Below, one piece after another: positions 30,457-59,719 of a stretch of DNA of 64,000 bases; position 1 is the first letter of the stretch; each line of letters begins with the position of its first letter. A program made the translations under genes and the position numbers. This stretch comes from a virus (lineage: Duplodnaviria; Heunggongvirae; Uroviricota; Caudoviricetes): IMG/VR virus record IMGVR_UViG_3300042474_001151, positions 48,431-112,430 of that record; one strand, given 5' to 3'. The notes under the pieces are model-generated. The model saw only the letters and a list, made by a program, of their open reading frames with translations, was not told the origin of the DNA and did no database searches.

Positions 30457-31431
30457 ATGGCAAAGATTTTAAAAGTCACAATGACTAAAAAAGATGGTAC
30501 AACATTACCATTACACTATGCACTTTATGACAACAATCCAGTTGTTGATAGATGGATTCAAATGACAAAACAATCATTGGGGAAGAATATGGAAATAAAG
30601 GCTAGAGTGACAAATAACGAATTTAATAATATTGGTTATTTGATGGAACAAATCAATGAAGTACTTGTCTTTATTAATCAAAACTACGATAAGGAATTAC
30701 CAACCTTTACTGACTTTAATGAATTAGATAGCGCAATTTTAAATTACTTACATGAAGAGTTTGAAGTATATGGAGATAGAATCACCTTACTACAAGAGGA
30801 AAATAGGTGGTCGTTTGAATTACATGAGAAATTCTTATCGTTAAATGAATTTATCCATATGATTGAAACTGCAATTCATAGTGCGGAACATAAGTTTCCT
30901 AATTTTAGTTGTTTATATGATTTTTTACCTGCCGGATTACACGAACCCGTAACTGAAGTTGATAAATTGTTCTTAGAAGATAGATTTGAGTGGGGAGGTT
31001 TATATTGTGGATATAATACCTTAGGTAAAGATTATCTTTCAATTGCACCTGAAAATGATTGGGAAGTGATTTACAGAGATGAGGTTAGACCACAAATAAG
31101 ATTTGCACCGGAAACATGGATGAACTTTGGTCCCGACATGACTAATACAATACGAGAAAGTTTTTATAAATGGTACACCACATTATCACCTGAAGTACAA
31201 GCTAAAGTCCCAATAGATGATATGCATAAATTATCTTTAGGAAGATATAAGTTAGGTAGATTAATTTTAGATGATAGTATTAAACAAATTGAACCTAATG
31301 TCGAAAAATGGTTTGTGCCTGCGGGACCATCAGTTGCGTGGGCATTAGGTGACGATAGTTGTAAGGCAAAATGGAATAGAGAAATATTCACACAAGTTAA
31401 CGGGATACAAAAAATTGAAATTTTTGATTAA
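30457..31431 (+). CDS. hypothetical protein within radical SAM cluster
   Basis: 324 aa, translationally coupled. No motif recognised. Confidence 0.6.
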   Translation: MAKILKVTMTKKDGTTLPLHYALYDNNPVVDRWIQMTKQSLGKNMEIKARVTNNEFNNIGYLMEQINEVLVFINQNYDKELPTFTDFNELDSAILNYLHEEFEVYGDRITLLQEENRWSFELHEKFLSLNEFIHMIETAIHSAEHKFPNFSCLYDFLPAGLHEPVTEVDKLFLEDRFEWGGLYCGYNTLGKDYLSIAPENDWEVIYRDEVRPQIRFAPETWMNFGPDMTNTIRESFYKWYTTLSPEVQAKVPIDDMHKLSLGRYKLGRLILDDSIKQIEPNVEKWFVPAGPSVAWALGDDSCKAKWNREIFTQVNGIQKIEIFD

Positions 31432-32405
31432 TGAGAATACCAATAAAAGAAGTAGTTAATAACTATCCCGATGTTTTACAAGTAACTTGGGTAATCAACA
31501 CAATATGTTCCAATAAATGTGCGTATTGTGTTCCCGCATTACATAGTGGACATAATCACGGATATACATGGGAAGCAGTTAAAGCATTTTTTGACGAACT
31601 ATTTCTAAGATACCCAAAAATACACGTATCAATCGCAGGTGGAGAACCAACAATGTCACCATTTCTTTTAGATTTATGTAAAATGATACATGAGAAAGGA
31701 AGTACTGTGGGATTAACATCAAACGGCACCAGAAATGTTGAGTATTATTCTGAACTATCTAAGTATGTTAATTATATAGTATTTTCATATCATCCACAAT
31801 ATGGTGATAAAAATAAAGTTCTTGAAAAAATAAGAGCGTCTATTAATAATTGTTATTGTTCATTAAGAATAATGATGGACCCAAAACATTGGGACGTTGC
31901 TGTTAATATGTTTAACACAACTAAAGAAAGTGACGTGATGGAGTATTTTAATATGGAGGCGGTTAAGATTTTAGATTGGGACCAAGTTGATAGGGATACT
32001 TTAGTATACACCGAAGAACAATTAGAATGGTTTAAAGGTGATAATCGAGTTAACACAAAAACATTAATACCAACAGTCAATAAACCAGCATTAATTGGTG
32101 CACATTTTATTTTATCCGACGGTACTGTTGACACAAAAGCAGATGCTGTTGACTACATTAATGAAGGATTAAGTAATTTCTTTGGGTATCAATGTGACAT
32201 TGGATTGGAATCTTTATTTATTTTTGCTGATGGTGAAATAAAACGAGGTAATTGTGTTGGTTTTGATCTTGGTAATATTAATAAATTACAAGAAATAAAA
32301 TGGCCAACTGGTCCTATTACTTGTCCATGGCATATCTGTCATTGTGCAACAGATGTTATGATAAGTAAAAGAAGTCCGGAGTTAGTAAAAGGAAAATTAA
32401 TATGA
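31431..32405 (+). CDS. radical SAM protein with C-terminal Cys cluster
   Basis: ICSNKCAYC, AGGEPT; C-terminal C...GNC...CPWHICHC. Confidence 0.85.
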   Translation: MRIPIKEVVNNYPDVLQVTWVINTICSNKCAYCVPALHSGHNHGYTWEAVKAFFDELFLRYPKIHVSIAGGEPTMSPFLLDLCKMIHEKGSTVGLTSNGTRNVEYYSELSKYVNYIVFSYHPQYGDKNKVLEKIRASINNCYCSLRIMMDPKHWDVAVNMFNTTKESDVMEYFNMEAVKILDWDQVDRDTLVYTEEQLEWFKGDNRVNTKTLIPTVNKPALIGAHFILSDGTVDTKADAVDYINEGLSNFFGYQCDIGLESLFIFADGEIKRGNCVGFDLGNINKLQEIKWPTGPITCPWHICHCATDVMISKRSPELVKGKLI

Positions 32406-33088
32406 TAAAAAATTTTTTTGATGATGCGTTAACTAATAGTTGGACATCTGATGGTATACCTGAAAATATATTTGATACAAATTGTAATTGGCCATATTCT
32501 GTGATTGATTTTGATAATGATTTTGATGGGATGTTAGAAGAAATTAAATCATTAGAAAAAACATACTTTGTTAAACATAGGGATAAAGATAAAATTAAAT
32601 CGTATAATCATGAAGGATGGAATGCGGTGACGTTACACGGAATTGATTCAACTAAGACGGAACACTTTGACAGATATGGATTTAAAACACAAGAAGAGGC
32701 AAATTATAATTGGACCGACGTTTGTGAATATCTTCCAAAATTAACTAACTTTATAAAATCATTAGGATATGAACAATACGATAGAGTTAGAATTATGAAA
32801 TTAGAGGCGGGAGGTTTTATTATGCCACATACCGACGGTAAAGGAAGAATTTTTGGACCATTTAATATAGCAATAAACAATCCTGAGGGTTGTCAGTTCG
32901 TATTTAAAAACCATGGGTTGGTACCATTTAAAAAAGGTAGAGGGGTGTTCTTAGATTTGGGTAGAGAACATGCAGTTTGGAACAATTCTGATGAGGATAG
33001 ATACCACATAATTGTACACGGACACATTAACCCAAAATTATTAAACGATTCGATAACTTATACTAACACCATTTATGGACATAATTAA
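32402..33088 (+). CDS. 2OG-Fe(II) oxygenase, Asp/Asn beta-hydroxylase-like
   Basis: IMPHTDG...EHAVWN...RYHIIVH (HxD..H..R). Confidence 0.8.
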   Translation: MIKNFFDDALTNSWTSDGIPENIFDTNCNWPYSVIDFDNDFDGMLEEIKSLEKTYFVKHRDKDKIKSYNHEGWNAVTLHGIDSTKTEHFDRYGFKTQEEANYNWTDVCEYLPKLTNFIKSLGYEQYDRVRIMKLEAGGFIMPHTDGKGRIFGPFNIAINNPEGCQFVFKNHGLVPFKKGRGVFLDLGREHAVWNNSDEDRYHIIVHGHINPKLLNDSITYTNTIYGHN

Positions 33089-36000
33089 TAACGTTTTTAC
33101 AAATAATTTAAATTTATCAATTTGCATATTTCCGGCCGATACGTTACACAATGACGAATTGTCCGAACGGATGATTGAATTTACAAGATTCTACACATAC
33201 AGAATAAAAGAAATTACTGAGAATGGTGCAATTGATGTTATTGTTGATAAATCAATAGATGAAGCGTTGATTAACAATCATGAAAAATATGATCATATAT
33301 TATTCATGTCTGCTGGTGTTAGAATTTACGATAGTAGTATAATATTTGATATTGAAAATGAAATATTAAATAATCCAAATTATATGGCGGCCGGTCATAT
33401 TTTGGAATGGAAAGAAAATTGGTACGAATTACACCACCAATTTATTTTAGTTAATACTAAAAATTGGGTAAAAGCTGGTAAACCTTTTTATGGTGGATGG
33501 GAAGGTAAGTACGATGATTTAGTGGTAATAGAAAGGAGTGTTGAAAATTTTCATGATGATTATACACCATTATGGATTAGAAACACCGGCACCATTGAAA
33601 ATAGATTTCACCAAAAACAAGGATGGAATTTTATTAACGAAGCATTGAAAAATGGATTTGACGTCATCAATTGGAATCAAACCATTAGAAATAAAAGAAC
33701 GTATTATTATCCCGAATCCGACAGTGATAAATTTTTAGAATGTTTAAAAACACAAACTGTTGATACAACATTAAACGTTAATCAAGTTAAATTATTACAG
33801 AGTCCGGATTCAGTTAAAAATCAAATATGGTTGTTAAATTCTGAAGATATGAATTTAACATTCTACAATAAAGAAAGTAGATTAGATGTTATTGCAATAC
33901 CTGCTGGAGGATTTAAGTTTTTGGATATCATTAAAAACAAACATTTAAATGAAAACGGAAAAGTTATAATATACGACTTTAATCAAAAAAGTTTAGATTG
34001 GTTTGATTTTATATTAAAAAACGATACAAGTAATATTAAGGAAACTATAAAAGATTTCCAACACAATAGAAATTTTCACTTTTTAGGAATGGGTCAGAAA
34101 GTTTTTGGAATGGATGGAAATTTCACAAATAATTTCATATTAAGTTTAGATAGAACATTTGAATATTATGGAGGAGAAGATAATTTTCATCAATACCTTA
34201 CTGAATTTAAAAAATTAAATGTCAAATTAGTTAATTCTGATTTAATACGCCATCCAGAAAAACTAATTAATGAATTGGACGGTAGAAAAAATTACATAAG
34301 TATTTCTAACATATTCTCAACGGATTACACAAATACATTTATTGGACTTAAAGAGACTAATGAATATTATTTAAAATTAAGGAGTTTATTACCAAACGAC
34401 ACACTATTGGTTGGTTTTACTCCTGACTGTAAGTATATTGATGAGATTCTTTATAAGAATGAATCCATAAAAGAACAGTTAGATAATATTAGTGGAGATA
34501 GAGACCAATTAATATTAAAACACATTTTAGAAAGAGATTCGGAGAGTACGAGAGAAGTTCCTAACAACCACGCTTCGGCACATATAGGTGGAGTTAAAGG
34601 TATTTTAAAATATCAAAATTTTAATGAACCGGTTGCGTTAAAAGATTTCAATGAAGGTAGAGAGAGAGTTATTATGGCAATTTGTCCCAGTTGGGGGGTT
34701 ATATTCCCACCATACGGTGTGTCAAAAATTGTCGGTACATTAAGAAAAGAGGGATTTGCATGTAAGGTATATGACCTAAACGTTCAACTGTATCATAACT
34801 TAATTGAAAGAACCGGTGAAGACTATTGGAGATCTGAAAAGTTTTTCTATTGGGAAGATTCTTGGTTTTTTAAACAATATCTTTTGGATGAAGTGGAACC
34901 GTACCTTAGTAGGGCTGCGGATAAAATAATATCAGATAACCCAACAGTAATTGGGTTAAGTATGTACACCACGAACAGTCAAGCATCTTTAGTACTAATA
35001 AAGAAATTAAAAGAAAGAGCGCCACACATACCAATCGTTGTTGGAGGACCTGCAGTTGCAACAGAAGAATGGTTATTAAACAACGAGTTCTCAAAATACG
35101 TGAGTTACTTTTTCAAAGGTGAAGCTGAAGAGAGTTTTGTTAAATTTTTAAATGACGGAGTACACTTAAAGAAATTACCAATAGATGGAATTTTTATTGG
35201 GGACACCAATAGTAAAATAAACTTAGACGAAAAGGCATACGCCGATTTTTCTGATTATGATTTGGAGTCTTACTTACATCGAGACGGTGTTAGTATCGAA
35301 ACATCGAGAGGATGTGTTGCACAATGTAGTTTCTGTGCTGAAACTTATTTTTGGAGATTTAGGTCAATGACACCGGAAAGAGTAATTGATGAGATGAAAT
35401 TTCAAATTGAAACATATGGTGTTAAAAGATTTTGGTTTGTTGACAGTTTAGTTAATGGTAACCTAAAGAATTTCCAAAGGTTAGTTGATTTGATATTGGA
35501 AAACAAACTTGAGATTGGATGGAATAGTTATAGTAGATGTGATGGAAGAATGACAAAAGAATTTATCGACAAGGTTGCCGACTCTGGTTGTACTGCATTA
35601 AGTTATGGTGTCGAATCTGGAAGTCAAAAGGTCCTCAATGACATGAGAAAAAAAATCGAGATTTGGGAAATCGAAAATAACTTAAGGGACACATACACCA
35701 CCAATAAAATATTCACTCACGTTAATTGGTTAATCGGATTTCCAACTGAAACTTACATTGATTACTATCATAGTAACATTCTAATTTATAATGTTAGAAA
35801 ATACATACACCAATTAAGTCCTGGTATGGGATGTGGACCGAGTGTTTTAAGTGACTTACAGGAAAGATTTGACCTATATGGAATTGCTTGGAAAGAAAGA
35901 ACGTGGGATAATCAATTTTTAGGTAATTGGTATACACATGGTTTTAAAAATACACAACTAAACAGATTCATTAGAATTAAATTATTTCACATATGGATGG

Positions 36001-36587
36001 AAATATTAAAAAATAGTGCCGGTAGTGTGGTCGATAATCCTCAGAGACATAGTGATATAAACGAATCTTACACATTTAAAACAAATAACTATAATATTGA
36101 TGAATATATGATTCAAGAAGAGAATATTAATTTTAAATTAATTGAAGAGTCTGAGTCAAATTCATTGTTAAGTACATATGTTGCAAATGAACCACTACCA
36201 ATATTCTTTGGGTTATATAAGATATTCAAAGGTTTTGAAATGAATATCACATTTGACCCTGATAAAGATATAAAGTCATGGGGAAGTATTTCTGTCAATT
36301 ACTTTGCAAATATTAACTTTAAAATAGATAATTCTGGAAATTATACATATTCAATTAATCATGGAATGAGACATTATGGAATGACTCCTAAAATTGAAGA
36401 AACATATAAATGGGAAAGAAACAATACTCATGGTGACATGAGTTTTAGTGACCAATTTATTAAAAGTGGAAACATAAAAAATTGGATTACTAATGAAGAT
36501 TATGTTGATGAAACTATTCATGAACAGTATAGAAATAAAACTAAAAAACATTTAACACCGGTTACGGTCACAAAAAGACTAATATAA
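33075..36587 (+). CDS. multidomain protein: unknown N-terminal region fused to B12-binding radical SAM (class B methylase-like)
   Basis: PPYGVSKI..LRKEGF..YDLN and IVVGGP (B12-binding); ETSRGCVAQCSFC; YGVESGSQKVL; HVNWLIGFPTET. Confidence 0.8.
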   Translation: MDIINNVFTNNLNLSICIFPADTLHNDELSERMIEFTRFYTYRIKEITENGAIDVIVDKSIDEALINNHEKYDHILFMSAGVRIYDSSIIFDIENEILNNPNYMAAGHILEWKENWYELHHQFILVNTKNWVKAGKPFYGGWEGKYDDLVVIERSVENFHDDYTPLWIRNTGTIENRFHQKQGWNFINEALKNGFDVINWNQTIRNKRTYYYPESDSDKFLECLKTQTVDTTLNVNQVKLLQSPDSVKNQIWLLNSEDMNLTFYNKESRLDVIAIPAGGFKFLDIIKNKHLNENGKVIIYDFNQKSLDWFDFILKNDTSNIKETIKDFQHNRNFHFLGMGQKVFGMDGNFTNNFILSLDRTFEYYGGEDNFHQYLTEFKKLNVKLVNSDLIRHPEKLINELDGRKNYISISNIFSTDYTNTFIGLKETNEYYLKLRSLLPNDTLLVGFTPDCKYIDEILYKNESIKEQLDNISGDRDQLILKHILERDSESTREVPNNHASAHIGGVKGILKYQNFNEPVALKDFNEGRERVIMAICPSWGVIFPPYGVSKIVGTLRKEGFACKVYDLNVQLYHNLIERTGEDYWRSEKFFYWEDSWFFKQYLLDEVEPYLSRAADKIISDNPTVIGLSMYTTNSQASLVLIKKLKERAPHIPIVVGGPAVATEEWLLNNEFSKYVSYFFKGEAEESFVKFLNDGVHLKKLPIDGIFIGDTNSKINLDEKAYADFSDYDLESYLHRDGVSIETSRGCVAQCSFCAETYFWRFRSMTPERVIDEMKFQIETYGVKRFWFVDSLVNGNLKNFQRLVDLILENKLEIGWNSYSRCDGRMTKEFIDKVADSGCTALSYGVESGSQKVLNDMRKKIEIWEIENNLRDTYTTNKIFTHVNWLIGFPTETYIDYYHSNILIYNVRKYIHQLSPGMGCGPSVLSDLQERFDLYGIAWKERTWDNQFLGNWYTHGFKNTQLNRFIRIKLFHIWMEILKNSAGSVVDNPQRHSDINESYTFKTNNYNIDEYMIQEENINFKLIEESESNSLLSTYVANEPLPIFFGLYKIFKGFEMNITFDPDKDIKSWGSISVNYFANINFKIDNSGNYTYSINHGMRHYGMTPKIEETYKWERNNTHGDMSFSDQFIKSGNIKNWITNEDYVDETIHEQYRNKTKKHLTPVTVTKRLI

Positions 36588-37381: not shown

Positions 37382-37392
37382 AGATTAAAACT

Positions 37393-41090: not shown

Positions 41091-41528
41091 ATGATTATAT
41101 GGTTAACAGGTCAACCTGGAGCAGGTAAAACAACATTAGCAGATTGGTTAAAGGCACATTTCTATAATAATGCAATCATTATAGATGGTGATGACATTAG
41201 AGACGTTTATCAGAATAAAGATTATTCTGAGGAAGGAAGACGACGTAACATTGAAAAGGCTCAGGATTTGGCGTTATTTTTACATCATAAAAAATTAACC
41301 GCAATAGTGTCGTTGGTTTCACCATATCGAGACCAAAGAGAATCGTTTAAACAAAGGTTAGGTGATGACATAAAGGAAGTATATGTCCATACTACTGACA
41401 TTAGGGGTAGAGAAGATTTTCACGTTCATAATTATGAACCACCTTTAGAAAACTTCATTGATATTGATACAACAAATGAGGATCAATACACATCATTTCA
41501 AAAAATTAAAAATCAATTATATGAGTAA
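41091..41528 (+). CDS. cysC: adenylyl-sulfate (APS) kinase
   Basis: WLTGQPGAGKTT P-loop, IDGDDIR, GRRRNI, SLVSPYR, YEPP. Confidence 0.88.
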   Translation: MIIWLTGQPGAGKTTLADWLKAHFYNNAIIIDGDDIRDVYQNKDYSEEGRRRNIEKAQDLALFLHHKKLTAIVSLVSPYRDQRESFKQRLGDDIKEVYVHTTDIRGREDFHVHNYEPPLENFIDIDTTNEDQYTSFQKIKNQLYE

Positions 41529-41901
41529 AAAATATGCATTATACGTGGGACGTTGGCAAAATTTTCACGCTGGACACGAATGGTTAATTAACCAACAATT
41601 AGAAAAAGGTAAAAATGTTTGGGTTGCAATTAGAGATGTTCCACAAGATGAGAACAACCCTAAAACGGCAATACAAATTTTAAATGAGTTATCAAACGAA
41701 CCTTTCTTCAAAGATAAGTTTGATAGAATATTATTATCAATTATACCTGACATTGAAAGTATTAATTACGGAAGAGGGGTTGGGTATGATGTGATATATC
41801 ACGAACCACCAGCGGATGTTGCGGTTATTAGTGGGACAGCAATTAGAACTGGTCACATGACACCCGATGGTACCATGACTTATGATAAAAACAAGGGATA
41901 A
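41521..41901 (+). CDS. HxGH nucleotidyltransferase (cytidylyltransferase-like fold)
   Basis: YVGRWQNFHAGH, ISGTAIR. Start reassigned to ATG 41521. Confidence 0.75.
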   Translation: MSKKYALYVGRWQNFHAGHEWLINQQLEKGKNVWVAIRDVPQDENNPKTAIQILNELSNEPFFKDKFDRILLSIIPDIESINYGRGVGYDVIYHEPPADVAVISGTAIRTGHMTPDGTMTYDKNKG

Positions 41902-42461
41902 TGAATTTTAATTACATAGGAAGTGTGGATATATCCAATATCAAATTAAAATTATTAAATATGAATGAAAGTGTTTGGTTGGAGAATACTATAAGACAAA
42001 CTACATTTGATGTACATAGACACACTGAAACCATTTATTTAATGTGGGATATGGAATCATTGGCTACAAATGTAAAAGGAACTATTCATCCTAATTTTTA
42101 TAATTTTGGTGTTGATAAATTACTTACAATTTTATCTCCTTTATATGAAAAAACATATGGAAATGGAGAATTTATAAGAGTTGTTTTAGCTAAATTAAAA
42201 AAGAATACCAAAATATATCCTCATATAGATAGTGGGGAAAGTTTATCATCTTGCAAAAGAACACATATACCAGTTATATCAAATCCACTTGTTAAATTTA
42301 CAATTGATGATGAAACTAAATTCTTACAAGAAGGAGAAATTTGGGAAATTAACAACCAAAACACACATTCAGTTGAAAATATGAGTGAGATTGATAGAAT
42401 ACATTTTATTATAGATTATATGGTATCAGATAAAATTAAAAAAATAAAATCGTTACTATGA
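41901..42461 (+). CDS. 2OG-Fe(II) oxygenase, Asp/Asn beta-hydroxylase-like
   Basis: IYPHIDSG, RTHIP, HSVEN...RIHFIID. Confidence 0.8.
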   Translation: MNFNYIGSVDISNIKLKLLNMNESVWLENTIRQTTFDVHRHTETIYLMWDMESLATNVKGTIHPNFYNFGVDKLLTILSPLYEKTYGNGEFIRVVLAKLKKNTKIYPHIDSGESLSSCKRTHIPVISNPLVKFTIDDETKFLQEGEIWEINNQNTHSVENMSEIDRIHFIIDYMVSDKIKKIKSLL

Positions 42462-42673
42462 TAGTAGAGCATAAAAGACATATAGCTAAAACCATCTCAT
42501 ATCGTATTTTAAGTACCCTTATAGGGGTTTTAGTAATGTGGTGGATAAGTGGTTCAATTAAGATAGGAGCTGCATTTGGAGTTGTAGAATTAGTGTATAA
42601 ACCAGTTCAATACTATATTCATGAAAGAGTATGGTATAAATTTATAAAATACGGATTAAAAAAGAAAGACTGA
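42458..42673 (+). CDS. small membrane protein, DUF2061-like
   Basis: KRHIAKTISYRIL...YYIHERVWYK; two short hydrophobic segments. Confidence 0.7.
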   Translation: MIVEHKRHIAKTISYRILSTLIGVLVMWWISGSIKIGAAFGVVELVYKPVQYYIHERVWYKFIKYGLKKKD

Positions 42674-43233
42674 TGGATAAATTTCATATTATAAAAAATT
42701 TTTTAACCGAAGAGGAATGTTTTAATATTTTAGTAAAATACAAATCTGAATTAAAACTAAAACCTGCCGAGATAGCTAAAATGGGGGGTAATACAATTAG
42801 TGATAAAAGGAGGTCATCCATAGCGTTTATCGATAGTATAAAAACGATAGATGAAAGACTTAATAATATATTAAAGAATACAATACAAATCAAGGGATTT
42901 GAAGTAACAGGTTTAGGTCCATATCAATTTACGGAATATAAAGTTGGTGAACATTACGATTGGCACACCGATTCATCACCCATTGGAGATGAATATAAGG
43001 GTAGATTTTGTTCTATTGTTATTCAGATTAATGATGAATATGACGGTGGATACCTTCAGTTAAAAGATGAGAATGGTGATAATATTCAATTGGATAAAGG
43101 TACGGGAAATATGTATATATTTTATTCAAATATAACTCACAGGGTGGTACCTGTTACAAGTGGCGTGAGATACTCTTTGGTTAATTGGATTTCATTAAAC
43201 CCCATAGAAAACTTTAAAAAAACAATAATATAA
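42673..43233 (+). CDS. 2OG-Fe(II) oxygenase, prolyl-4-hydroxylase-like
   Basis: YDWHTDS, YDGGYL, HRVVPVTSGVRYSLV. Confidence 0.85.
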   Translation: MDKFHIIKNFLTEEECFNILVKYKSELKLKPAEIAKMGGNTISDKRRSSIAFIDSIKTIDERLNNILKNTIQIKGFEVTGLGPYQFTEYKVGEHYDWHTDSSPIGDEYKGRFCSIVIQINDEYDGGYLQLKDENGDNIQLDKGTGNMYIFYSNITHRVVPVTSGVRYSLVNWISLNPIENFKKTII

Positions 43234-43251
43234 AATATTCTAAAAATAAGA

Positions 43252-43259
43252 TATTTATA
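43252..43259 (+). promoter_or_regulatory. putative late-promoter motif TATTTATA
   Basis: Intergenic, before the ATP-grasp/Hint gene. Confidence 0.45.
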
Positions 43260-43282
43260 TATAAAACTATAACTCATTAGAT

Positions 43283-44734: not shown

Positions 44735-44761
44735 ATTTAAAAATAAAATAAATTATATATT

Positions 44762-44872
44762 ATGTCAATAAAAACTATATTCGCACCCACAGAAGAGGGA
44801 ACTAAAACAGTCGTTGAAACCACAATACAAGATATGGTTTTGACAATCTTGTCAGATGTTCAATCTTCTTAA
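44762..44872 (+). CDS. 36-aa Thr-rich peptide (not in ORF track)
   Basis: MSIKTIFAPTEEGTKTVVETTIQDMVLTILSDVQSS*. Fills the gap between neighbours, with an A-rich leader. Confidence 0.5.
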   Translation: MSIKTIFAPTEEGTKTVVETTIQDMVLTILSDVQSS

Positions 44873-44893
44873 TTATTTAATTAGTTCATATCC

Positions 44894-45786: not shown

Positions 45787-45787
45787 A

Positions 45788-46483: not shown

Positions 46484-46495
46484 TTTTTAATAAAT

Positions 46496-46524
46496 TTGAC
46501 AATGTGGACTTTTTTTCGTATATT
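46496..46524 (+). promoter_or_regulatory. sigma70-like promoter TTGACA-N17-TATATT
   Basis: In the intergenic gap before the SET gene; ATG 8 nt downstream. Confidence 0.75.
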
Positions 46525-46532
46525 CATATCAT

Positions 46533-46904
46533 ATGATCATTAAAAATAAAATTCAATTAGAGGTAAAATATATAGACGAAACAATGGGTTTCGGTGTTTT
46601 CGCTTCACAGGATATTGACGAAGGTACTATCATTGAAACTTGTTATAGTATTAAAACATACAATCAAACGTTTAACCCGTGTTTTGACTATCTTTTCAGT
46701 TTAAGTAACACAGAATCTTTACTACCTTTGGGTTATGGTTCAATATATAACCACAGTTACACACCAAATATACATTGGAGAGTCGTAAACTACGAAAAGC
46801 CCATCATTGAATTTTTCTCATTAAAAAAAATAAAATCGGGCGATGAGTTGTGTCACAACTATGGTGCTCATTATTGGAAAGTTAGAGAAAAAAAATTACT
46901 ATAA
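46533..46904 (+). CDS. SET-domain protein (lysine methyltransferase-like)
   Basis: GFGVFA..DI..G, GSIYNHSYTPN, IKSGDELCHNYG. Confidence 0.85.
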   Translation: MIIKNKIQLEVKYIDETMGFGVFASQDIDEGTIIETCYSIKTYNQTFNPCFDYLFSLSNTESLLPLGYGSIYNHSYTPNIHWRVVNYEKPIIEFFSLKKIKSGDELCHNYGAHYWKVREKKLL

Positions 46905-46905
46905 T

Positions 46906-47580
46906 ATGGGAACCCTTTGGACATTTGGAGATTCGTTTACGGCGGGTGATGGATGTGTGGAAAATATACCTATTAGAGATGGTGATTTTAAATATTATAA
47001 CGAATATAAACAATTAGATAGTGATATATGGCCAAACATATTAGGTGAAACTATTAGATATAATGTAAAAAATATGGGAAAAAGTGGGGCAAGTAATGAT
47101 TATATTTTAGATTCTATTATTGATAATTTTAATATGATAACGATGGATGATGTGGTTATAATTGAAAAAACATTTTACCAAAGATTCGATGTCCCTAAAT
47201 TAAATAGTGATGAATTTCAAACAATATATGGTGAAGCTCTTTATATAATGGATACTGATTTAAAAAAAAATAAATATAATAAAGATAAATTAGAGATTGA
47301 AACAATATTAAATTATGGTGTTTTATTTTGTCAAAACTCGCTGTTTCAGGAAAGACAGAACAAACGATTTCGATTTATTGAAACATTATTAAAATTAAAC
47401 GTAAAAAAAATTTTAATTTGGGATATTGATAGTGATTTAAGAAAATCAATTGAAACAATTTCACGACACACAAAAGGTAAAATAAAGGATTATCATTTTA
47501 GTTTTAATGGTCATAAAGAATTTAGTGAACTTTTATATAAAAAACTATACACTAAAGATATTAAACTCACATTAATTTAA
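46906..47580 (+). CDS. SGNH/GDSL-like protein
   Basis: TFGDSFTAG, GASNDYI, DYHFSFNGH. Start reassigned to ATG 46906. Confidence 0.65.
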   Translation: MGTLWTFGDSFTAGDGCVENIPIRDGDFKYYNEYKQLDSDIWPNILGETIRYNVKNMGKSGASNDYILDSIIDNFNMITMDDVVIIEKTFYQRFDVPKLNSDEFQTIYGEALYIMDTDLKKNKYNKDKLEIETILNYGVLFCQNSLFQERQNKRFRFIETLLKLNVKKILIWDIDSDLRKSIETISRHTKGKIKDYHFSFNGHKEFSELLYKKLYTKDIKLTLI

Positions 47581-48630
47581 ATGAAAAACAAAATAGATTT
47601 AAAAGATTATGTATGTGGTGTGCCATTCGACTCATTGGAAATACATAATAACCAATATTTTGTATGTTGCCCGTCATGGTTAAGTGTTTCGTTTAAAAGA
47701 GATGATTATGAATTGAATGAAATATGGAATAGTGAACCCGTTCAAAATATTAGAGAAAGTATATTAGATGGTTCATTTAAGTATTGTAATAAAGAACTTT
47801 GCCCATTTTTAAGTAAATTGGTAAATTATGGGGTAGCAACGGGCCCAATTAGTTTGAAATCAAATTCACATATTAATAGTTCTATTATGGAAAATGATAC
47901 TCCTAATATATTAATGATGAATTTTGATAGAACTTGTAATTATAAATGTCCATCATGTAGAGTAGATTTAATCGTTGAAAATGGTCAAGGAATAAAGAGG
48001 GTTGAAAAAACAATTGAAGATATTGATAATTATTATTCTGCAAATGTGAAATCATTATACATAACAGGTTCAGGAGACCCATTTGTATCGGTGGCATTTA
48101 GAAATTATTTAAGAAACTTCAACCCTAAAAAATACCCTAAATTAAAATCGATACATTTACACACCAATGCTTCAATGTGGAATAAAGAAATGTGGGATAG
48201 TATGCCAAACATACACAAATATGTGCGCACTTGTGAAATTAGCATAGATGCTGGAACTAAAGACACTTACGAAAATAAAACAAGATTAGGTGGGGATTGG
48301 GAAAACTTGTTAAATAATCTTAAATTCATAAGTACCTTACCAATAAATGTGAAAACGTCTTTTGTTGTGCAAGATTCCAACTATATGGAAATGGAAACAT
48401 TTTATAATTTAATGTATTCTATATTTGGTAAAAAGGTAAATGTATTTTTTGGTAAGATAACCAATTGGGGAACATTTTCCGATGGAGAATTTAAATTAAA
48501 ACAAGTGTGGGATACAGAACATCCCGAACATCACTTATTCAAAAAAGAGTTTAATAAAATATGGAAAAATCAAAACCTTTTTCATAATCTATATGAGTTT
48601 ATAGATAACACTAAGAAAACTTTAATATAA
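47581..48630 (+). CDS. radical SAM protein with N-terminal twitch-like cluster
   Basis: VCGVPF...CCP...CNKELCP; RTCNYKCPSC; GSGDPF. Confidence 0.85.
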   Translation: MKNKIDLKDYVCGVPFDSLEIHNNQYFVCCPSWLSVSFKRDDYELNEIWNSEPVQNIRESILDGSFKYCNKELCPFLSKLVNYGVATGPISLKSNSHINSSIMENDTPNILMMNFDRTCNYKCPSCRVDLIVENGQGIKRVEKTIEDIDNYYSANVKSLYITGSGDPFVSVAFRNYLRNFNPKKYPKLKSIHLHTNASMWNKEMWDSMPNIHKYVRTCEISIDAGTKDTYENKTRLGGDWENLLNNLKFISTLPINVKTSFVVQDSNYMEMETFYNLMYSIFGKKVNVFFGKITNWGTFSDGEFKLKQVWDTEHPEHHLFKKEFNKIWKNQNLFHNLYEFIDNTKKTLI

Positions 48631-48634
48631 TTTA

Positions 48635-49201
48635 ATGGTTATAACAATACTCGCTGAACCAAGAACGGGTTCAACAAATTTGGCAGACTGGTTTAAATCA
48701 AATAATGATTTTACCGTTTTACAAGAACCATTAAATAAATATGGAAAATCATATAAAAAAAATAATCCTATTAATACTTGGATATACAATACACCACATT
48801 TATTAATTAAGGAAATATATGACCCAAATAAAGATTTAAGTGAACTAATAGAATTTTCAGATAAAATAATTATTCTTTATAGAGAAAATAAAAAGGAACA
48901 ATTAGAATCTTGGTTAGTTGCGAAGGTGACCAATAATTGGGGAGGTAAATGGGTAAATAGTAAAATTAATATACCCGACAAAGAATTAAAAATTGAGTTT
49001 TTTAATGAAATGGTAAATGGTTTCGAAAAAGAATATAGGTCATGTGATAATATGTTTAAAATATCATATGAAGAGCTTTATTACAATAATGGTTTTGAAA
49101 AAATTGTGAATTATCTTAATATTGATACAGTTAATAATATTGATTTCCCATATGGTCAAAAATATAGGTTGGAAAACATAGAAACAAATAAATTAATATG
49201 A
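48635..49201 (+). CDS. sulfotransferase-like P-loop protein
   Basis: AEPRTGSTNL, QEP, IILYRENK.EQL.SW, ISYEELY. Confidence 0.6.
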   Translation: MVITILAEPRTGSTNLADWFKSNNDFTVLQEPLNKYGKSYKKNNPINTWIYNTPHLLIKEIYDPNKDLSELIEFSDKIIILYRENKKEQLESWLVAKVTNNWGGKWVNSKINIPDKELKIEFFNEMVNGFEKEYRSCDNMFKISYEELYYNNGFEKIVNYLNIDTVNNIDFPYGQKYRLENIETNKLI

Positions 49202-50007
49202 ATCCATTAAAATATTGGGTCCCCGACACATTCGAAATTTCATCTTACAAATACCCATTAAAAGAAAGAATAAATAAAACTTATACGACCTCCGGTGGGG
49301 ATGATACTGGTAAATGTATTTACACGTACAATGAATTAGGTTTTAGGGGAGACAGTGTGAAAAAAAAAGGATTTAAGATAATGTCAATAGGGTGTTCATT
49401 TACGGAAGGGGTTGGTGTGGACGATACCGAAACTTGGCCGTACCAATTTACTAATTTAATACCAGATGGTGTTAATATGAATTTTGGAACTGGTGGAAGG
49501 AGTAACGATTTTATAACGAGATGTTTATTAACGTATTATGATTTAATAAAACCAGATTTGGTATTAATAATGTATACAAATCCACAAAGAAAAGAAATAT
49601 ACACAAAAGATGGTGGAGTAGAACCATTTATGCCCACTGCCAGTTGGGGTTGGATGGAATTGACCAAAGAAGGACGTGAAGTACAAAATAATTTGGTATC
49701 ACTACAAAACGAAAACGAAGATTTCATAAATTGGTATAAAAATCATTTGCTTATAAAATATTTTTTAGAAACAAAGAAATGTAATTGGGTATGGAATGGT
49801 CATTTTGGTATACCAAACGATTATAATGAATTTAATAGATTTGATGGTGATTACGAAAAACCATTTTTGGATTATGGAGTTGATAAGGTACATCCAGGAC
49901 CAAAACATAATAACGAATATGTTAGACGTTTATTTAATCACATATATATAAATTTTAGAGAGTACTTACCAGAAGACCTAACCCAACCCAAAAAGAGGTT
50001 AATTTAA
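49198..50007 (+). CDS. SGNH/GDSL-like protein
   Basis: SIGCSFTEGVGV, TWP, GRSNDFI, DKVHPGPKHN. Confidence 0.65.
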   Translation: MNPLKYWVPDTFEISSYKYPLKERINKTYTTSGGDDTGKCIYTYNELGFRGDSVKKKGFKIMSIGCSFTEGVGVDDTETWPYQFTNLIPDGVNMNFGTGGRSNDFITRCLLTYYDLIKPDLVLIMYTNPQRKEIYTKDGGVEPFMPTASWGWMELTKEGREVQNNLVSLQNENEDFINWYKNHLLIKYFLETKKCNWVWNGHFGIPNDYNEFNRFDGDYEKPFLDYGVDKVHPGPKHNNEYVRRLFNHIYINFREYLPEDLTQPKKRLI

Positions 50008-50029: not shown

Positions 50030-50040
50030 AAGTATTTATC
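50030..50040 (+). promoter_or_regulatory. putative late-promoter motif AAGTATTTATC
   Basis: Intergenic, before fibre gene 50062. Confidence 0.55.
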
Positions 50041-50061
50041 TAAGTATAATACCATATTTAG

Positions 50062-55497: not shown

Positions 55498-55509
55498 AAT
55501 TCGTATATT
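55481..55509 (+). promoter_or_regulatory. possible sigma70-like promoter TTGTAG-N17-TATATT
   Basis: Weak -35; ATG 55517 is 7 nt downstream. Confidence 0.4.
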
Positions 55510-55516
55510 ATAGAAT

Positions 55517-56656
55517 ATGTTAAGAGAGAATGTTGAAGTAAGTGGTTCATTAAATATAAGTGGACAATATATTATACCAAGAGGGCCAAGAGCAAATAGA
55601 CCGTCTAGTCCTGATATTGGTTCTTTATATTTGGAAGAGTCAACAAGTGGTAGTTTTGTTGTAACATACACAGCCTCATCAAATTATGATGGTGGTTGGG
55701 AACCAGTTGGTTCACAAAATACAGATAGAACAGGATTTAAATACAGACAGGTTATTAATTACTCATACTTAGCTGGTGGTTATAAATCCGCATCACCATG
55801 GAAGAATGTTCATAGAACAACAAATTCAACAGACCAAACGGTTCACTTAGGTGAATTATTAGATTACCCAGCATCATATACATCTGGTGCTTGCAGTAAA
55901 AGTATTTTATTTCTATGGTCAACAAACACAGATGGTACATTTAAAGGAGATAGTACTATTCATTCAACATGGACTAGTGGTGTACACATGGTTAATGAAA
56001 CCGCATATGCTCACCAATCAAAATGGGATTTAGCAAATGCAAGAGATGACTGCGGTACTTTACATCAAGAAACAGAGTTTGCGTGGATATTCGGTGCTGG
56101 TGTGGCTGCTGTTGAGAAATTTAATTTAACAAATGAAACGATGTATAGTGTGTACTATGGTGGACCGTACACTTTAACTGCAATGGAAACATCAATTACA
56201 GGTAGTGGTCCTTCTGGTGCATCAGGATTTTCAGATGAGAATTATGGTTATGGATGGACACAACAAAGTGGCACAAAACTATTCTTCGCAAATGATACAT
56301 TCACAAATAATCAGCAGTGGGGTGCGAGCGGTCAACAAAAAGGTATTAGTTCAAAGGTGGGTAAAGGTTATGCGGGAAATGAAGGAACATATAATGGGGG
56401 TTATAATTTAAGAAGATGGAATGTTTTTACTGAAACTAATTTAGGTAACGTTTCAAAACCGCACCCTAACTGCGGAGAAGAAAACTTTACAATGGGACAA
56501 GATCATCAATATATGTTAGGTTGTTATGACGGTGCACAGGTAAATACTAGTTGGAAATTTGGTTACACTACGGATACTGGTACAGTAAACCCTAGTGGTT
56601 TGGCGCCAGGAGTAAATGATGGAACATCATCAGGTCATTGCGGTTGGAGAACATAA
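55517..56656 (+). CDS. Kelch-like beta-propeller protein with fibre-type N-terminal module (paralog 1)
   Basis: E.SGSL...RANRPSSP..GSLYLE, YLAGGYK..PWKNV, GYAGNEG.YNGG, GTSSGHCGWR. Confidence 0.6.
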   Translation: MLRENVEVSGSLNISGQYIIPRGPRANRPSSPDIGSLYLEESTSGSFVVTYTASSNYDGGWEPVGSQNTDRTGFKYRQVINYSYLAGGYKSASPWKNVHRTTNSTDQTVHLGELLDYPASYTSGACSKSILFLWSTNTDGTFKGDSTIHSTWTSGVHMVNETAYAHQSKWDLANARDDCGTLHQETEFAWIFGAGVAAVEKFNLTNETMYSVYYGGPYTLTAMETSITGSGPSGASGFSDENYGYGWTQQSGTKLFFANDTFTNNQQWGASGQQKGISSKVGKGYAGNEGTYNGGYNLRRWNVFTETNLGNVSKPHPNCGEENFTMGQDHQYMLGCYDGAQVNTSWKFGYTTDTGTVNPSGLAPGVNDGTSSGHCGWRT

Positions 56657-56662
56657 AATTTA

Positions 56663-56670
56663 TATTTATA
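56663..56670 (+). promoter_or_regulatory. putative late-promoter motif TATTTATA
   Basis: Intergenic, before propeller paralog 2. Confidence 0.4.
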
Positions 56671-56674
56671 AGAT

Positions 56675-57781
56675 ATGCTACACGAAAATATTGAAATTAG
56701 CGGGTCCCTAAAAGCACAAGGTGTGATAAAATCACCAGTAGGCACGCGGGCAAATAGACCTAGCAGTCCACAAACTGGTTCTTTATATTTAGAGCAGGCA
56801 ACTAGTGGTAGTTTTTTAATGGTTTATGTTGGTTTAAGTAATAGTGATAGTGGATGGGTTAGGGTATCTTCTCAAGTAAATGCCAATGTTGGTTTTAAAT
56901 TTAGACAGATAATTAGTGTTTCTTATCTTGCGGGTGGTTATAAAGATTCATCCCCTTGGAAAAATGTCCACAAAACAATTAATGCGACCGATCAGACAAC
57001 ACACATTGGTGAGTTATTAGATTTTCCTGCGTCGTATACATCTGGAGCTTGTAGTAAATATATTTTTTTTGTTTGGTCTGTCAATGAAGACAACGTTTTT
57101 AAGGGGCCAAGTGATGTTAATGGTGTGAGAACATCTGCAATTAATATGGCAAACGATACCAAGTATGCACATAATTCTAAGTTTAACATAACAACAGCTA
57201 GAAGCGATGTTGGAACTATGCACAAAGAAACTGAAATTGCATATCTATTTACAGGCGGTAGCTCCACTGTTGAAAAATTTGACCTAAGTACGGAGACAAT
57301 TGCAACTGGTTTTAATTTATCAACAATAAATGGTGGTGATGGTGGTTCAGCATTTTCTGATGAAAATTTTGGATACGGTTGGACATCTAGTGAAGGAATT
57401 AAAATGAGTTTTGCCACAGAAACATTTACATCATCTGGAATGTGGGGGGCACATTCACAACAGAAGGGAATGAGTTCTAAAGTTGGAAAAGGTTATGCTG
57501 GAAACGAAGGTTCATATAATGGTGGTTACAACTTAAGAAGATGGAGTAATGCTAATGATACCAACATTGGAAACGTATCAAAGCCTCATCCTAATTGCGG
57601 TGAAGAAAATTTTACAATGGGACAAGATCACCAATATATGTTGGGTAATTATGATGGCGCTCAAAATAATACAAGTTGGAAATTTTATTACTCAACGGAC
57701 ACCGGGACGACCAGCGTAAGCGGTCTAGCCCCTGGCGTAAATGCGGGGACATCATCCGGACATTGTGGTTGGAGAGCATAA
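56675..57781 (+). CDS. Kelch-like beta-propeller protein (paralog 2)
   Basis: Colinear with and highly similar to paralogs 1 and 3. Confidence 0.6.
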   Translation: MLHENIEISGSLKAQGVIKSPVGTRANRPSSPQTGSLYLEQATSGSFLMVYVGLSNSDSGWVRVSSQVNANVGFKFRQIISVSYLAGGYKDSSPWKNVHKTINATDQTTHIGELLDFPASYTSGACSKYIFFVWSVNEDNVFKGPSDVNGVRTSAINMANDTKYAHNSKFNITTARSDVGTMHKETEIAYLFTGGSSTVEKFDLSTETIATGFNLSTINGGDGGSAFSDENFGYGWTSSEGIKMSFATETFTSSGMWGAHSQQKGMSSKVGKGYAGNEGSYNGGYNLRRWSNANDTNIGNVSKPHPNCGEENFTMGQDHQYMLGNYDGAQNNTSWKFYYSTDTGTTSVSGLAPGVNAGTSSGHCGWRA

Positions 57782-57794
57782 AAATAATTAAATT

Positions 57795-58904
57795 ATGATA
57801 TACGAGAATTTAGAAGTTAGTGGTAGTTTAACATCGGATAGAGTGGTGAATAGACCACCTAGAGGAACAAGAGCAAATAGAGTTGGTTCACCATTGTCTG
57901 GTTCATTATATTTGGAAGAATCTACGAGCGGTAGTTTCTTAATGTTATATACTGGAGTGTCAAATATTGATAATGGATGGGAAAGAATTGCCGCACAAGA
58001 AACCATACCAATTGCGTTTAAATATAGACAAGTTTTATCATACACATATTTGGCCGGTGGTTATAAAGACTCATCACCGTGGAGAAACGTACACAAAACA
58101 ACAAACTCAACAAGTCAAACAACACACGTTGGTGAATTATTAGATTATCCAGTATCTTATACATCAGGAGCGTGTAATAAAACAATATTGTTTATTTGGT
58201 CAGTAAATGACGATGGAGCATGGAAAGGGCCGGATAGTATTCATGGAACTCGGACATCGGCAATCAATATGTTTAATGATACAAACTATGCTCACCAAGC
58301 TAAATTTAATACAGGTATTGCTAGAAGTGACGTTGCTACCATGCAAAAGGAAACGGAATTTGCTTACTTAATATCAGGTGGATCAACCACTATTGAAAAA
58401 TTTAATTTATCTAACGAAAGTTATGTAAGTGGATTTGGTGTAACGTCAATAAGTGGAACGGATGGTGCTGGTGCATTTTATGATGAAAGTTTTGGATATG
58501 CATGGACAACATCCGCAGGAATAAAATTTAATTTTTCCAACGAAACACCAAGTTCCTCAACACAATGGGGCGCACACGCACAACAAAAAGGTGTACCATC
58601 TAAAGTCGGTAAGGGATATTGCGGTAACGAGGGATCATATAATGGTGGTTATAACCTAAGAAGGTGGAGTAACTCCACAGATACGAATCTTGGTAACGTA
58701 GCTAAACCACACCAAAACTGTGGAGAAGAAAACTTAGCATTAGGACAAGATTGGCAGTATATGTTAGGTAATTACGATGGAACGGGTCAAAATAACACTA
58801 GTTGGCAATTAATATATGCAACCGACACTGGATCAAATGCGGTTACCGGATTAGCTCCAGTGGTAAATGCCGGAACATCATCCGGACATTGTGGTTGGAG
58901 ATAA
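57795..58904 (+). CDS. Kelch-like beta-propeller protein (paralog 3)
   Basis: Colinear with and highly similar to paralogs 1 and 2. Confidence 0.6.
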   Translation: MIYENLEVSGSLTSDRVVNRPPRGTRANRVGSPLSGSLYLEESTSGSFLMLYTGVSNIDNGWERIAAQETIPIAFKYRQVLSYTYLAGGYKDSSPWRNVHKTTNSTSQTTHVGELLDYPVSYTSGACNKTILFIWSVNDDGAWKGPDSIHGTRTSAINMFNDTNYAHQAKFNTGIARSDVATMQKETEFAYLISGGSTTIEKFNLSNESYVSGFGVTSISGTDGAGAFYDESFGYAWTTSAGIKFNFSNETPSSSTQWGAHAQQKGVPSKVGKGYCGNEGSYNGGYNLRRWSNSTDTNLGNVAKPHQNCGEENLALGQDWQYMLGNYDGTGQNNTSWQLIYATDTGSNAVTGLAPVVNAGTSSGHCGWR

Positions 58905-58907
58905 CAT

Positions 58908-58936
58908 TTGACTTTATGAATATTTTTCACTATATT
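58908..58936 (+). promoter_or_regulatory. sigma70-like promoter TTGACT-N17-TATATT
   Basis: Intergenic gap before 58955. Confidence 0.7.
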
Positions 58937-58954
58937 GTATAAAAACAATTAATT

Positions 58955-59719
58955 ATGGAACAAGGTTACAAATACGACAGGTCTAATTTTATCAATAACC
59001 CATTTGATGAAAAACTAATGCAAATATCTGAAAGCATGTCATTTGCATTACCGAAATATAAGGCATATAATTTCGTTGGGGGTGCACAAATAACTCCATA
59101 TGCGAGATTAAAACAATGGTTATTGGAATTAAGAGGTAGAGAAGATGCTGTTGAACATTTGGAATATACAGTAAGAAAGGCCGAACTTGAAATTCAAATG
59201 GACGAAGAAAGTAAAGAATTTATTACCGACACCAAAAGAAAAGAAATGGTCGATTTAACCATTGCAGATAAACGTATTGATTTAAGAAAATTTAATAGAA
59301 ATCTTAAAGATGCGTATAGAGAAAGACAAGGGTTTATTGATTTAATTAAGGAATATTTGGAATCAGATGATGCCACCTTACCCGATGGTACCAAATTAAT
59401 TGATGTTTTTGGTAATCCAGAATTGGAAGAAAAATATGAGCACGAATATTGGACTGTTCGTATGGCTAAACAAGCAATGTTGGATATGATTTCATATGGT
59501 AGAATTGGTACAGGTAACTTAGATTCAATTCTTATGATGGACCCTGAACAACAAAAACAAGTTTTAACTTTGGCTTCAGCATACACGATTTCTATTGATA
59601 AAAATATAAATCAATTAATGTCACAAGCTACAACAGATAATTTCTCAATTGAAGAGTCGTTAAAGAATCAATTGAAATTAACAGAACCAAATAAAATAGA
59701 AACAGAAAAATTATTATAA
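58955..59719 (+). CDS. helical/coiled-coil hypothetical protein
   Basis: 254 aa, YARLKQWLLELRGRE; preceded by a sigma70-like promoter. Confidence 0.6.
   Translation: MEQGYKYDRSNFINNPFDEKLMQISESMSFALPKYKAYNFVGGAQITPYARLKQWLLELRGREDAVEHLEYTVRKAELEIQMDEESKEFITDTKRKEMVDLTIADKRIDLRKFNRNLKDAYRERQGFIDLIKEYLESDDATLPDGTKLIDVFGNPELEEKYEHEYWTVRMAKQAMLDMISYGRIGTGNLDSILMMDPEQQKQVLTLASAYTISIDKNINQLMSQATTDNFSIEESLKNQLKLTEPNKIETEKLL

Follow-up and report, generated by a model that had tools for sequence, protein, structure and literature searches.

Why should a long series of enzymes encoded by one phage, apparently unrelated to each other, end in nearly the same few residues? The question is raised by a 64,000-nt stretch of DNA (hereafter the window), which covers bases 48431-112430 of a 176-kb IMG/VR record (G000, estimated 53% complete) and belongs to an uncultured T4-like giant phage with many relatives. 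The window has a G+C content of 32% and nearly every gene on the + strand; it opens with T4-type long-tail-fibre genes, which are followed by a long island of modification genes. An earlier reading of the sequence (the original prediction) had proposed that the modification enzymes of this island share a C-terminal K/R-x-(L/I)(L/I) tag, acting as a docking or sorting signal that groups a tailoring pathway. In the present study this tag was followed through approximately 160 related phage contigs, comprising 80 found via the tagged radical SAM gene 47581 and a further 79 found via gene 43283, which encodes an ATP-grasp-Hint fusion, together with a complete 335-kb relative (G001). Genes are labelled by the start coordinates of their open reading frames (ORFs), and tail positions are numbered -4 to -1, where -1 is the last residue before the free carboxylate. 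Tail counts refer to unique (non-identical) orthologue tails, of which 227 were obtained for ten window genes. For comparisons between families, 4143 ORFs pooled from all loci were clustered, giving 87 families in which five or more distinct tails are represented.

We consider it very nearly certain that selection acts on the tail as a protein signal, one that is specific to the toolbox of a pathway. The terminal hydrophobic pair is kept in 212 of the 227 orthologue tails. Residue -1 is Ile, Leu, Met, Val or Phe in 213 of them (Ile in 164), residue -2 is Leu, Ile or Phe in 216, and residue -3 is Thr or Ser in 132 (58%), with Lys, Asn or Gln in most others. Expressed as a profile, position -4 is Lys in 57% of tails, -3 is Thr in 46% and otherwise Lys, Ser or Asn, -2 is Leu in 70% or else Ile, and -1 is Ile in 72% or else Leu. 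The consensus is K(-4)-[T/S/K/N](-3)-[L/I](-2)-[I/L](-1)-COOH, approximately Lys-Thr-Leu-Ile. Substitutions in the tag are conservative, being made among Leu, Ile, Met, Phe and Val, and the linker that precedes it is polar and variable, differing by family. Tags vary within one genome as much as between genomes.

A nucleotide artefact could imitate such a pattern, and the original prediction had itself named one, in which AT-only codons double as the ribosome-loading region of the next gene. More broadly, AT-rich pre-stop codons might serve translation initiation of the next gene, form a promoter-like TATAAT element or mark a cassette recombination junction. Many tagged genes do overlap or abut the next start, Leu/Ile pairs precede off-frame stops at 5%, above the in-frame 2.2%, and ATA is slightly over-used for the final Ile. 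Against an artefact, the hydrophobic-pair endings are encoded by 61 distinct 9-mers, the Leu, Ile and Thr codons of the tag follow background synonymous usage, and TAA, TGA and TAG all occur as stops. The tag is also kept irrespective of spacing (retention within tagged families is 100% at 30-60 nt to the next gene and 97% above 60 nt), and families are bimodal in being tagged or not. Because of this codon variety, the independence of spacing and the conservation of the endings in orthologues, together with the off-frame-stop control described below, composition, gene overlap and ribosome loading are rejected as the cause, and the claim of the original prediction that the effect lies at the protein level holds. 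A shared 3' DNA cassette or recombination junction was ruled out by the family-specific linkers and by the 146 distinct 15-mers found among the 212 tagged tails. A nucleotide-level origin of any of these kinds is thus hardly credible.

The window genes concerned, with their endings and the unique orthologue tails that bear on them, are as follows.

25607-26983, + strand: 458-aa protein, family unassigned, ends TIKPI (decayed tag; ending read); KTLI, SSLI or NSLI stands at the end of 8 of 9 orthologue tails.
31431-32405, + strand: radical SAM enzyme, ends KGKLI, tag codons at 32388-32402 (Pfam Radical_SAM, E = 4.7e-12).
33075-36587, + strand: B12-binding radical SAM enzyme of 1170 aa, ends TKRLI (Pfam B12-binding and Radical_SAM).
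41901-42461, + strand: Asp/Asn beta-hydroxylase-type oxygenase, ends IKSLL (Pfam Asp_Arg_Hydrox, E = 2.5e-11); its two orthologues end KTLL and KSLL.
42673-43233, + strand: prolyl 4-hydroxylase (P4H)-type 2-oxoglutarate (2OG)-Fe(II) oxygenase, ends KKTII, followed by a 49-nt spacer (Pfam).
43283-44734, + strand: ATP-grasp and Hint domains with a Cys-rich tail, tag-free, single-copy (structure model).
44762-44872, + strand: micro-ORF of 36 codons, with weak homology to a 45-48-aa ORF of relatives.
44894-45190, + strand: Cys-rich small protein of 98 aa, ends KDKML, a degenerate tag (PHROG 13558); 32 of 34 orthologue tails are tagged, mainly as K-T-[IL][IL].
45187-45786, + strand: 2OG-Fe(II) oxygenase, paralogue of 42673, ends EKKLL (Pfam).
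45788-46483, + strand: sulfotransferase-like, ends SSKIF, a loose tag (Sulfotransfer_2, a language-model lead only); 41 of 41 orthologue tails are tagged.
46533-46904, + strand: SET-domain methyltransferase, ends EKKLL (Pfam SET, E = 3.4e-14).
46843-47580, + strand: family unassigned, start maybe at 46906, ends KLTLI (ending read); 9 of 10 orthologue tails are tagged.
47581-48630, + strand: radical SAM enzyme, ends KKTLI, the canonical tag (Pfam); 46 of 46 orthologue tails are tagged, at identities as low as 53%.
48635-49201, + strand: sulfotransferase-like, ends TNKLI (Sulfotransfer_3/Stf0, a lead only); 35 of 36 orthologue tails are tagged.
49198-50007, + strand: family unassigned, ends KKRLI, followed by a 54-nt spacer (weak SGNH/DUF6071 lead); 28 of 38 orthologue tails are tagged.
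58955-59719, + strand: no Pfam match, ends TEKLL (ending read).

All 11 endings listed by the original prediction read as quoted, as [K/R]-x-[L/I][L/I] or K-[L/I][L/I], and so do the looser endings of 25607, 44894 and 45788 and the tag-free endings of structural genes, of the adenosine 5'-phosphosulfate (APS) kinase (41091) and of the Hint fusion (43283); the spacers downstream of 42673 and 49198 are close to the 50 nt given for them. The three loose endings are degenerate copies of the tag, because their orthologues are tagged. That the tagged enzymes are unrelated stands for four Pfam-distinct folds in the window (radical SAM, 2OG/cupin-type oxygenase, SET, and B12-binding fused to radical SAM), with sulfotransferase-like and SGNH-like folds as further language-model leads only, but 42673 and 45187 form one BLAST family and three of the enzymes are radical SAM proteins. 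By count, [LI][LI] ends 21 of the 226 ORFs of the 176-kb record, where the in-frame dipeptide rate of 2.2% leads one to expect 4.9 (p = 3e-8). A harsher control used stops that do not end genes, 5.0% of which are preceded by two Leu/Ile codons, and gave a genome-wide p of 0.005. Within the core block from 41901 to 50007 the pair ends 8 of 12 genes, compared with 5% at off-frame stops. The comparison of the island with the rest of the window gave p = 0.07, the numbers being small. The decisive support for a shared tag comes from the orthologues.

The original prediction had asked whether cellular homologues lack the tag; among distant homologues of the oxygenase 42673, most do. In a search of 1.84 billion cluster representatives, 29 of the 30 best matches carry the tag, compared with 5 of the 50 most distant among the 150 listed. 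The alignment shows a last core strand, RYSLVxW, common to all. Distant homologues end in GPxF[K/R] a few residues past this strand, and the phage-lineage oxygenases have in place of that end an extension of 11-13 residues finishing in KKTLI. In the AlphaFold model of 42673 (predicted local distance difference test score, pLDDT, 92) the last core strand spans residues 166-177 and residues 178-186 are coil, with the last block at pLDDT 73. In 46533, too, the Pfam SET domain stops 12 residues short of the C-terminus. The tag is thus the end of a flexible extension of approximately 8-12 residues that follows the last structural element of each enzyme.

Across the pooled loci, families are bimodal with respect to the tag: of the 87, the tag stands on at least 80% of tails in 25 and on less than 10% in 42, with few between. 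Tagged Pfam families include Radical_SAM, B12-binding with radical SAM, 2OG-FeII_Oxy_3 (P4H-type, several families), Asp_Arg_Hydrox, SET (two families), Cupin_2, Trp_halogenase and FkbM methyltransferase, with weaker Pfam matches to GDSL/DUF6071 and SDR; an NT5C nucleotidase family likewise ends NKLL or KRLL. The flavin-dependent Trp halogenase family is assigned at E = 1e-89, and at 1.8e-60 against solved Trp halogenases. The families of 45788 and 48635 are abundant and, as a lead from language-model features, sulfotransferase-like, which fits the APS kinase gene just upstream (41091). At least 25 sequence-unrelated tailoring-enzyme families are thereby shown to keep the tag, several of which were probably acquired independently. 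Other families of the island are tag-free, namely carbamoyltransferase, UDP-sugar dehydrogenase, APS kinase, DUF2061, a GT4-FkbM fusion, Methyltransf_24 and Hsp20, as well as a propeller triplet (55517-58904). To say that the modification enzymes are tagged, as the original prediction did, is therefore too broad: many tailoring enzymes carry the tag, but some radical SAM, glycosyltransferase, methyltransferase, carbamoyltransferase and UDP-sugar dehydrogenase proteins of the same island do not, and the tag marks a subset.

The Trp halogenase of the relatives (L163:7003-8247 and 43 related ORFs) is short, at approximately 414 aa compared with 510-550 aa for solved enzymes; it ends K-E-L-I and adjoins the ATP-grasp-Hint gene.

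What this subset has in common is its neighbourhood. In close relatives the gene order runs from carbamoyltransferase through APS kinase, an unknown gene and DUF2061 to the 43283 family, followed by a run of tagged enzymes whose membership differs from phage to phage. When 79 loci were anchored on the 43283 family, most copies being 28-33% identical to that of the window, the fraction of genes ending in [LI][LI] was 0.76-0.87 at gene offsets -1, -2 and +2 to +4 and 0.74 at +5, dropping to 0.05-0.12 at +12 to +15 and to 0.03 at -10 (0.33 at -9). The anchor itself was tagged in 0 of 79 loci. Conversely, the 43283 family was present in all 36 loci that were anchored on the tagged radical SAM gene and had at least 8 kb upstream. 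The family is single-copy in both whole records (G000 and G001). Its only match in 185,579 cellular genomes was a 2-kb contig of a metagenome-assembled genome, and megablast and tblastn searches with it and with the radical SAM gene found no match in 50,697 deposited phage records. Full-text literature searches returned no paper describing the C-terminal tag or the ATP-grasp-Hint fusion. The positional gradient and the co-occurrence uphold the proposal that the tag groups a tailoring pathway, in that tagged genes are concentrated round one pathway gene (43283-44734). In G001, genes ending K-[L/I]-I form a second, looser group at 304-335 kb and 20-23 kb, tens of kilobases from the main island, with two GDSL-type hydrolases among them; the tag is therefore not limited to neighbours of the ATP-grasp-Hint gene.

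The product of this gene was modelled at pLDDT 81 and falls into three parts (residues 1-273, 278-455 and 456-483). The family profile found nothing significant among Protein Data Bank (PDB) sequences, and there was no sequence-level Pfam or PDB match, so that both domains were identified by fold comparison only. Residues 1-273 resemble ATP-grasp enzymes of the YgiC, glutathionylspermidine synthetase (GspS) and glutathione synthetase type (Z 8-9.6 over 200-230 residues) and, with lower scores, TTLL and LysX/ArgX (Z 6-7). Six residues of this part (E22, N24, R106, D110, K166 and R219) are at least 97% conserved in 99 sequences. Judged by fold and by these conserved charged residues, residues 1-273 would be an ATP-grasp ligase, a Z of about 9 showing the fold class only. 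Residues 278-455 have a Hint/intein fold (Foldseek E of 9e-9 and below; VIA Z 17.4 with a root-mean-square deviation of 1.8 over 139 residues against the NpuDnaB intein) and end in H452-N453, which are at least 97% conserved in the same 99 sequences. Residues 456-483 are disordered and correspond to a tail of approximately 30 residues (window 44642-44731). Among 94 distinct tails of the family this segment is hypervariable, with 20% Cys, 12% Gly, 10% Ser, 9% Pro, 8% Tyr and 6% Trp, a composition that would match the residues targeted by hydroxylases, halogenases, sulfotransferases, methyltransferases and radical SAM enzymes forming thioethers or crosslinks. Tails of the window clade end in Lys, and those of a distant clade (among loci L002-L178) often have a CWCPWSYCG-like core and end P-K-L, E-K-V or G-K-L; the family therefore has a conserved basic C-terminus of its own.

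The 159-nt gap after the ATP-grasp-Hint gene contains the micro-ORF 44762-44872. A conserved ORF of 45-48 aa follows this gene in relatives, with hidden Markov model matches in 83 of 141 loci, the window copy being a weak one (E = 7e-4). The ORFs of the relatives have an E-R-P...I-K motif near the N-terminus and end K-H-L-S/G. The product may be a partner peptide, a leader or a substrate of the ligase.

We propose that the tail is a short linear motif serving as a low-affinity docking label for one common partner, and that interchangeable enzymes (hydroxylases, radical SAM enzymes, SET and FkbM methyltransferases, Trp halogenases and probable sulfotransferases) would be recruited by it in turn. 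The common partner would be the ATP-grasp-Hint protein itself, which would present its own C-terminal peptide for modification, followed by Hint-mediated release. Compared with recognition of a leader peptide by a recognition element (RRE) in ribosomally synthesised and post-translationally modified peptide (RiPP) pathways, the addressing would be inverted: the enzymes would carry the address, and the precursor or scaffold the reader. Docking to the ATP-grasp-Hint protein is favoured because of the obligate co-occurrence, the positional gradient and one weakly supportive complex prediction. That the tail serves to dock the enzymes to one common partner has, in our view, about even chances; given docking, the ATP-grasp-Hint protein is rather probably that partner. 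The full scheme, a self-cleaving scaffold with core peptide and reader that would act as an inverted-address ribosomal-peptide factory, to which a four-residue tail admits any enzyme, is advanced tentatively, as somewhat less probable than its absence. The data leave room for a stronger variant, in which the ATP-grasp domain would act chemically on the tagged C-termini.

The complex prediction paired the 43283-family alignment, with ATP and Mg, with an alignment of the tagged oxygenase. The score was 0.59 (runs 0.60, 0.59 and 0.57), obtained with our own alignments and added ligands, which differ from the calibration of the complex tool, and the best of three controls scored 0.00. Agreement between the runs extends to at least 50% of contacts, and pLDDT for the partner is at least 82. 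In calibration, 58 of 80 solved complexes reached the mark, as did 2 of 110 mismatched pairs; those that did so at 0.60 or lower were only 7 of the 80 and both of the passing mismatches. The prediction thus lends weak support to a tagged oxygenase working on or with the ATP-grasp-Hint protein.

Several observations weigh against docking to this partner. The predicted complex would fit tail docking and an ordinary enzyme-substrate pose on the Cys-rich peptide alike, pure docking needs no intact-looking catalytic ATP-grasp domain, and co-location is equally expected from a shared degron or sorting signal. Some tagged genes are distant from the ATP-grasp-Hint gene, 31431 and 33075 by 10 kb and 58955 by 14 kb in the window, and several by tens of kilobases in the complete relative G001. 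The island also contains tag-free members of enzyme classes that are otherwise tagged there (radical SAM 27886, 29186 and 60470, and hydroxylase 32402). The association between halogenase and substrate residue is weak, Trp being present in the precursor tail at 25 of 28 loci with a Trp halogenase and at 44 of 66 without (p = 0.024, with no phylogenetic correction).

In a rival explanation the tag would be a ligation substrate, with the ATP-grasp domain activating the free alpha-carboxylate of the tag and joining the enzyme covalently to an amine or thiol, in a manner like ubiquitin conjugation; the targets could be, for example, the released Cys-rich peptide or a target protein. Among solved members of the ATP-grasp subfamily concerned, the C-terminal carboxylate of a peptide is the site of extension or amidation; they comprise glutathione synthetase and glutathionylspermidine synthetase, with TTL/TTLL and LysX/ArgX as more distant members, and the fold matches described above are to enzymes of these kinds. 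The invariant charged residues of the ATP-grasp domain, the strict position of the tag at the free C-terminus and the weakly passing complex prediction are all compatible with ligation. However, the stoichiometric use-up of 10-20 enzymes lacks an obvious benefit, a Z of about 9 gives the fold class only, and for the supposed role of carboxylate substrate the micro-ORF peptide and the Cys-rich tail are equally good candidates. We consider ligation very improbable.

A C-degron would also co-locate with the pathway. In this explanation the tail, basic and then hydrophobic, would be recognised by an AAA+ protease or unfoldase of the host or the phage, giving the enzymes a short, timed life or leading to their remodelling. 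MuA, which ends RRKKAI, exemplifies the C-motif 2 recognised by ClpX, and non-polar C-terminal residues are known determinants of degradation. Like this motif and ssrA-type degrons, the tag combines basic residues with a hydrophobic C-terminus, placing its signal after Lys-rich sequence at a free carboxylate, which those degrons require. That neither whole record yielded a PDZ_2-type reader gene is also in keeping with a degron. The position preferences of the tag (Leu over Ile at -2, Ile over Leu at -1, Thr/Ser at -3 and Lys at -4) resemble those of a specific pocket more than hydrophobic recognition of a general kind, and approximately 25 families keep the tag, several of them probably acquired independently. 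A degron does not predict a gradient centred on one gene or obligate co-occurrence with it, and no degrons are known that mark a whole biosynthetic toolbox or track one neighbouring gene. This explanation is unlikely, but it is the most plausible of the rivals to docking.

A sorting signal, by which the tail would load the enzymes into a compartment or the virion, with an HK97-fold capsid or another shell as the reader, would have an established parallel in encapsulins, whose cargo peptides prolong the C-termini of unrelated enzymes by a short stretch. Such peptides, like those of microcompartments, resemble the tag further in standing on flexible linkers and in being absent from homologues elsewhere. 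The tag is much shorter and differs in consensus: cargo peptides of encapsulins follow a G-S-L-x-I-G-S-L-[K/R]-type pattern, of which the profile of the last ten tail residues shows no trace. Tagged genes follow a biosynthetic gene and not the head module, and cofactor-hungry radical SAM and 2OG enzymes would be odd virion cargo. No shell gene is linked to them, although no search was aimed specifically at shell genes. We regard sorting as quite improbable.

Another hub considered is a small heat-shock protein of the phage, a kind of protein in which the alpha-crystallin groove accepts short hydrophobic motifs at C-termini. In some relatives (L043:11515-11901, L058 and L073) the cassette of tagged enzymes includes an Hsp20-family gene, and the complete relative encodes one too (G001:111949-112218), but the latter is approximately 145-180 kb from the island and none was found in the 176 kb of the present genome. 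The ligand motif of these proteins is I/V/L-x-I/V/L, a pattern that the tag lacks, its two hydrophobic residues being adjacent and its -3 and -4 residues polar or basic. The phage small heat-shock proteins also carry an IKV/IKI motif of their own, ending I/L-K-V/I-G. A hub of this kind is highly improbable. Of the mechanisms named in the original prediction (hub, compartment, virion loading or degron), the docking hub is the one favoured.

Formally, the tag appears closest to class I PDZ ligands. Both are four-residue motifs at a free C-terminus with a hydrophobic end, and Thr or Ser stands at -3 in 58% of tails. PDZ ligands also let unrelated proteins dock exchangeably and with low affinity to a common scaffold, as is proposed here for the tag. 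The tag differs in its strictly hydrophobic penultimate residue, which PDZ ligands do not require, in the replacement of Thr/Ser by Lys, Asn or Gln in approximately 40% of tails, and in that the enzymes are cytoplasmic phage proteins. A search with PF13180 (PDZ_2) found no match in G000 or G001 at E <= 1, other PDZ models and the host not having been searched. Functionally, the nearest analogy may be leader/RRE recognition in RiPP pathways or the docking domains of non-ribosomal peptide synthetase (NRPS) and polyketide synthase (PKS) assembly lines, in which one element brings many unrelated tailoring enzymes, such as hydroxylases, radical SAM enzymes, methyltransferases and halogenases, to one peptide; the tagged enzyme set is modular and shuffled among relatives. 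In the present case the element is on the enzymes and has four residues, compared with a leader or docking helix of 20-40 residues, and the putative precursor is, unlike those of RiPP pathways, fused to an ATP-grasp ligase and Hint domain; Pfam showed no RRE in the tagged enzymes. The peroxisomal signal PTS1 (SKL-COOH, read by Pex5) and the tripeptide of the cytosolic iron-sulfur assembly (CIA) machinery ([LIM]-[DES]-[WF]-COOH) are likewise C-terminal labels of 3-4 residues with one receptor. Both are eukaryotic, and the tag has its basic residue at -3/-4 and not -2, with Ile last; no reader of the TPR or CIA type was identified. The PTS1 pattern [S/A/C]-[K/R/H]-[L/M]-COOH does not occur as the consensus, the penultimate residue being Leu, Ile or Phe in 216 of 227 tails and not basic, and the profile has neither the acidic penultimate nor the aromatic last residue of the CIA tripeptide.

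If the tail is a docking label, it would constitute a portable four-residue address by which arbitrary enzymes are plugged into a biosynthetic pathway. Giant phages would then run modular peptide modification with addressing opposite to that of known RiPP pathways and, by reshuffling over 25 families of enzymes, vary a peptide that is rich in Cys, Trp and Tyr and heavily modified. The tag points to an abundant product in phages of lakes and the sea. For annotation, the tail provides a simple sequence rule for recognising pathway members in phage dark matter, and it already groups several families lacking Pfam matches with known tailoring enzymes. A minimal pair of tag and reader would be useful in engineering for the co-localisation of enzymes.

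Further observations concern genes around the tagged enzymes. The upstream block 41091-42673 (carbamoyltransferase, APS kinase, a 141-aa protein and a DUF2061 membrane protein) is kept directly before the ATP-grasp-Hint gene in close relatives and, together with the two sulfotransferase-like tagged families, suggests a supply of 3'-phosphoadenosine 5'-phosphosulfate (PAPS) for sulfation. Approximately 49 kb past the end of the window (G000, 161681-163268) there are two further paralogues of the 48635 family with one small gene between them; one ends KTLI and is tagged, the other SSKNR and is untagged, so that they form a natural tagged and untagged pair. Finally, the tag-free propeller triplet of the window consists of three tandem paralogues of approximately 370 aa (PHROG 1417), which all end G-H-C-G-W-R(-T/A) and stand between the large fibre gene and the tagged 58955.

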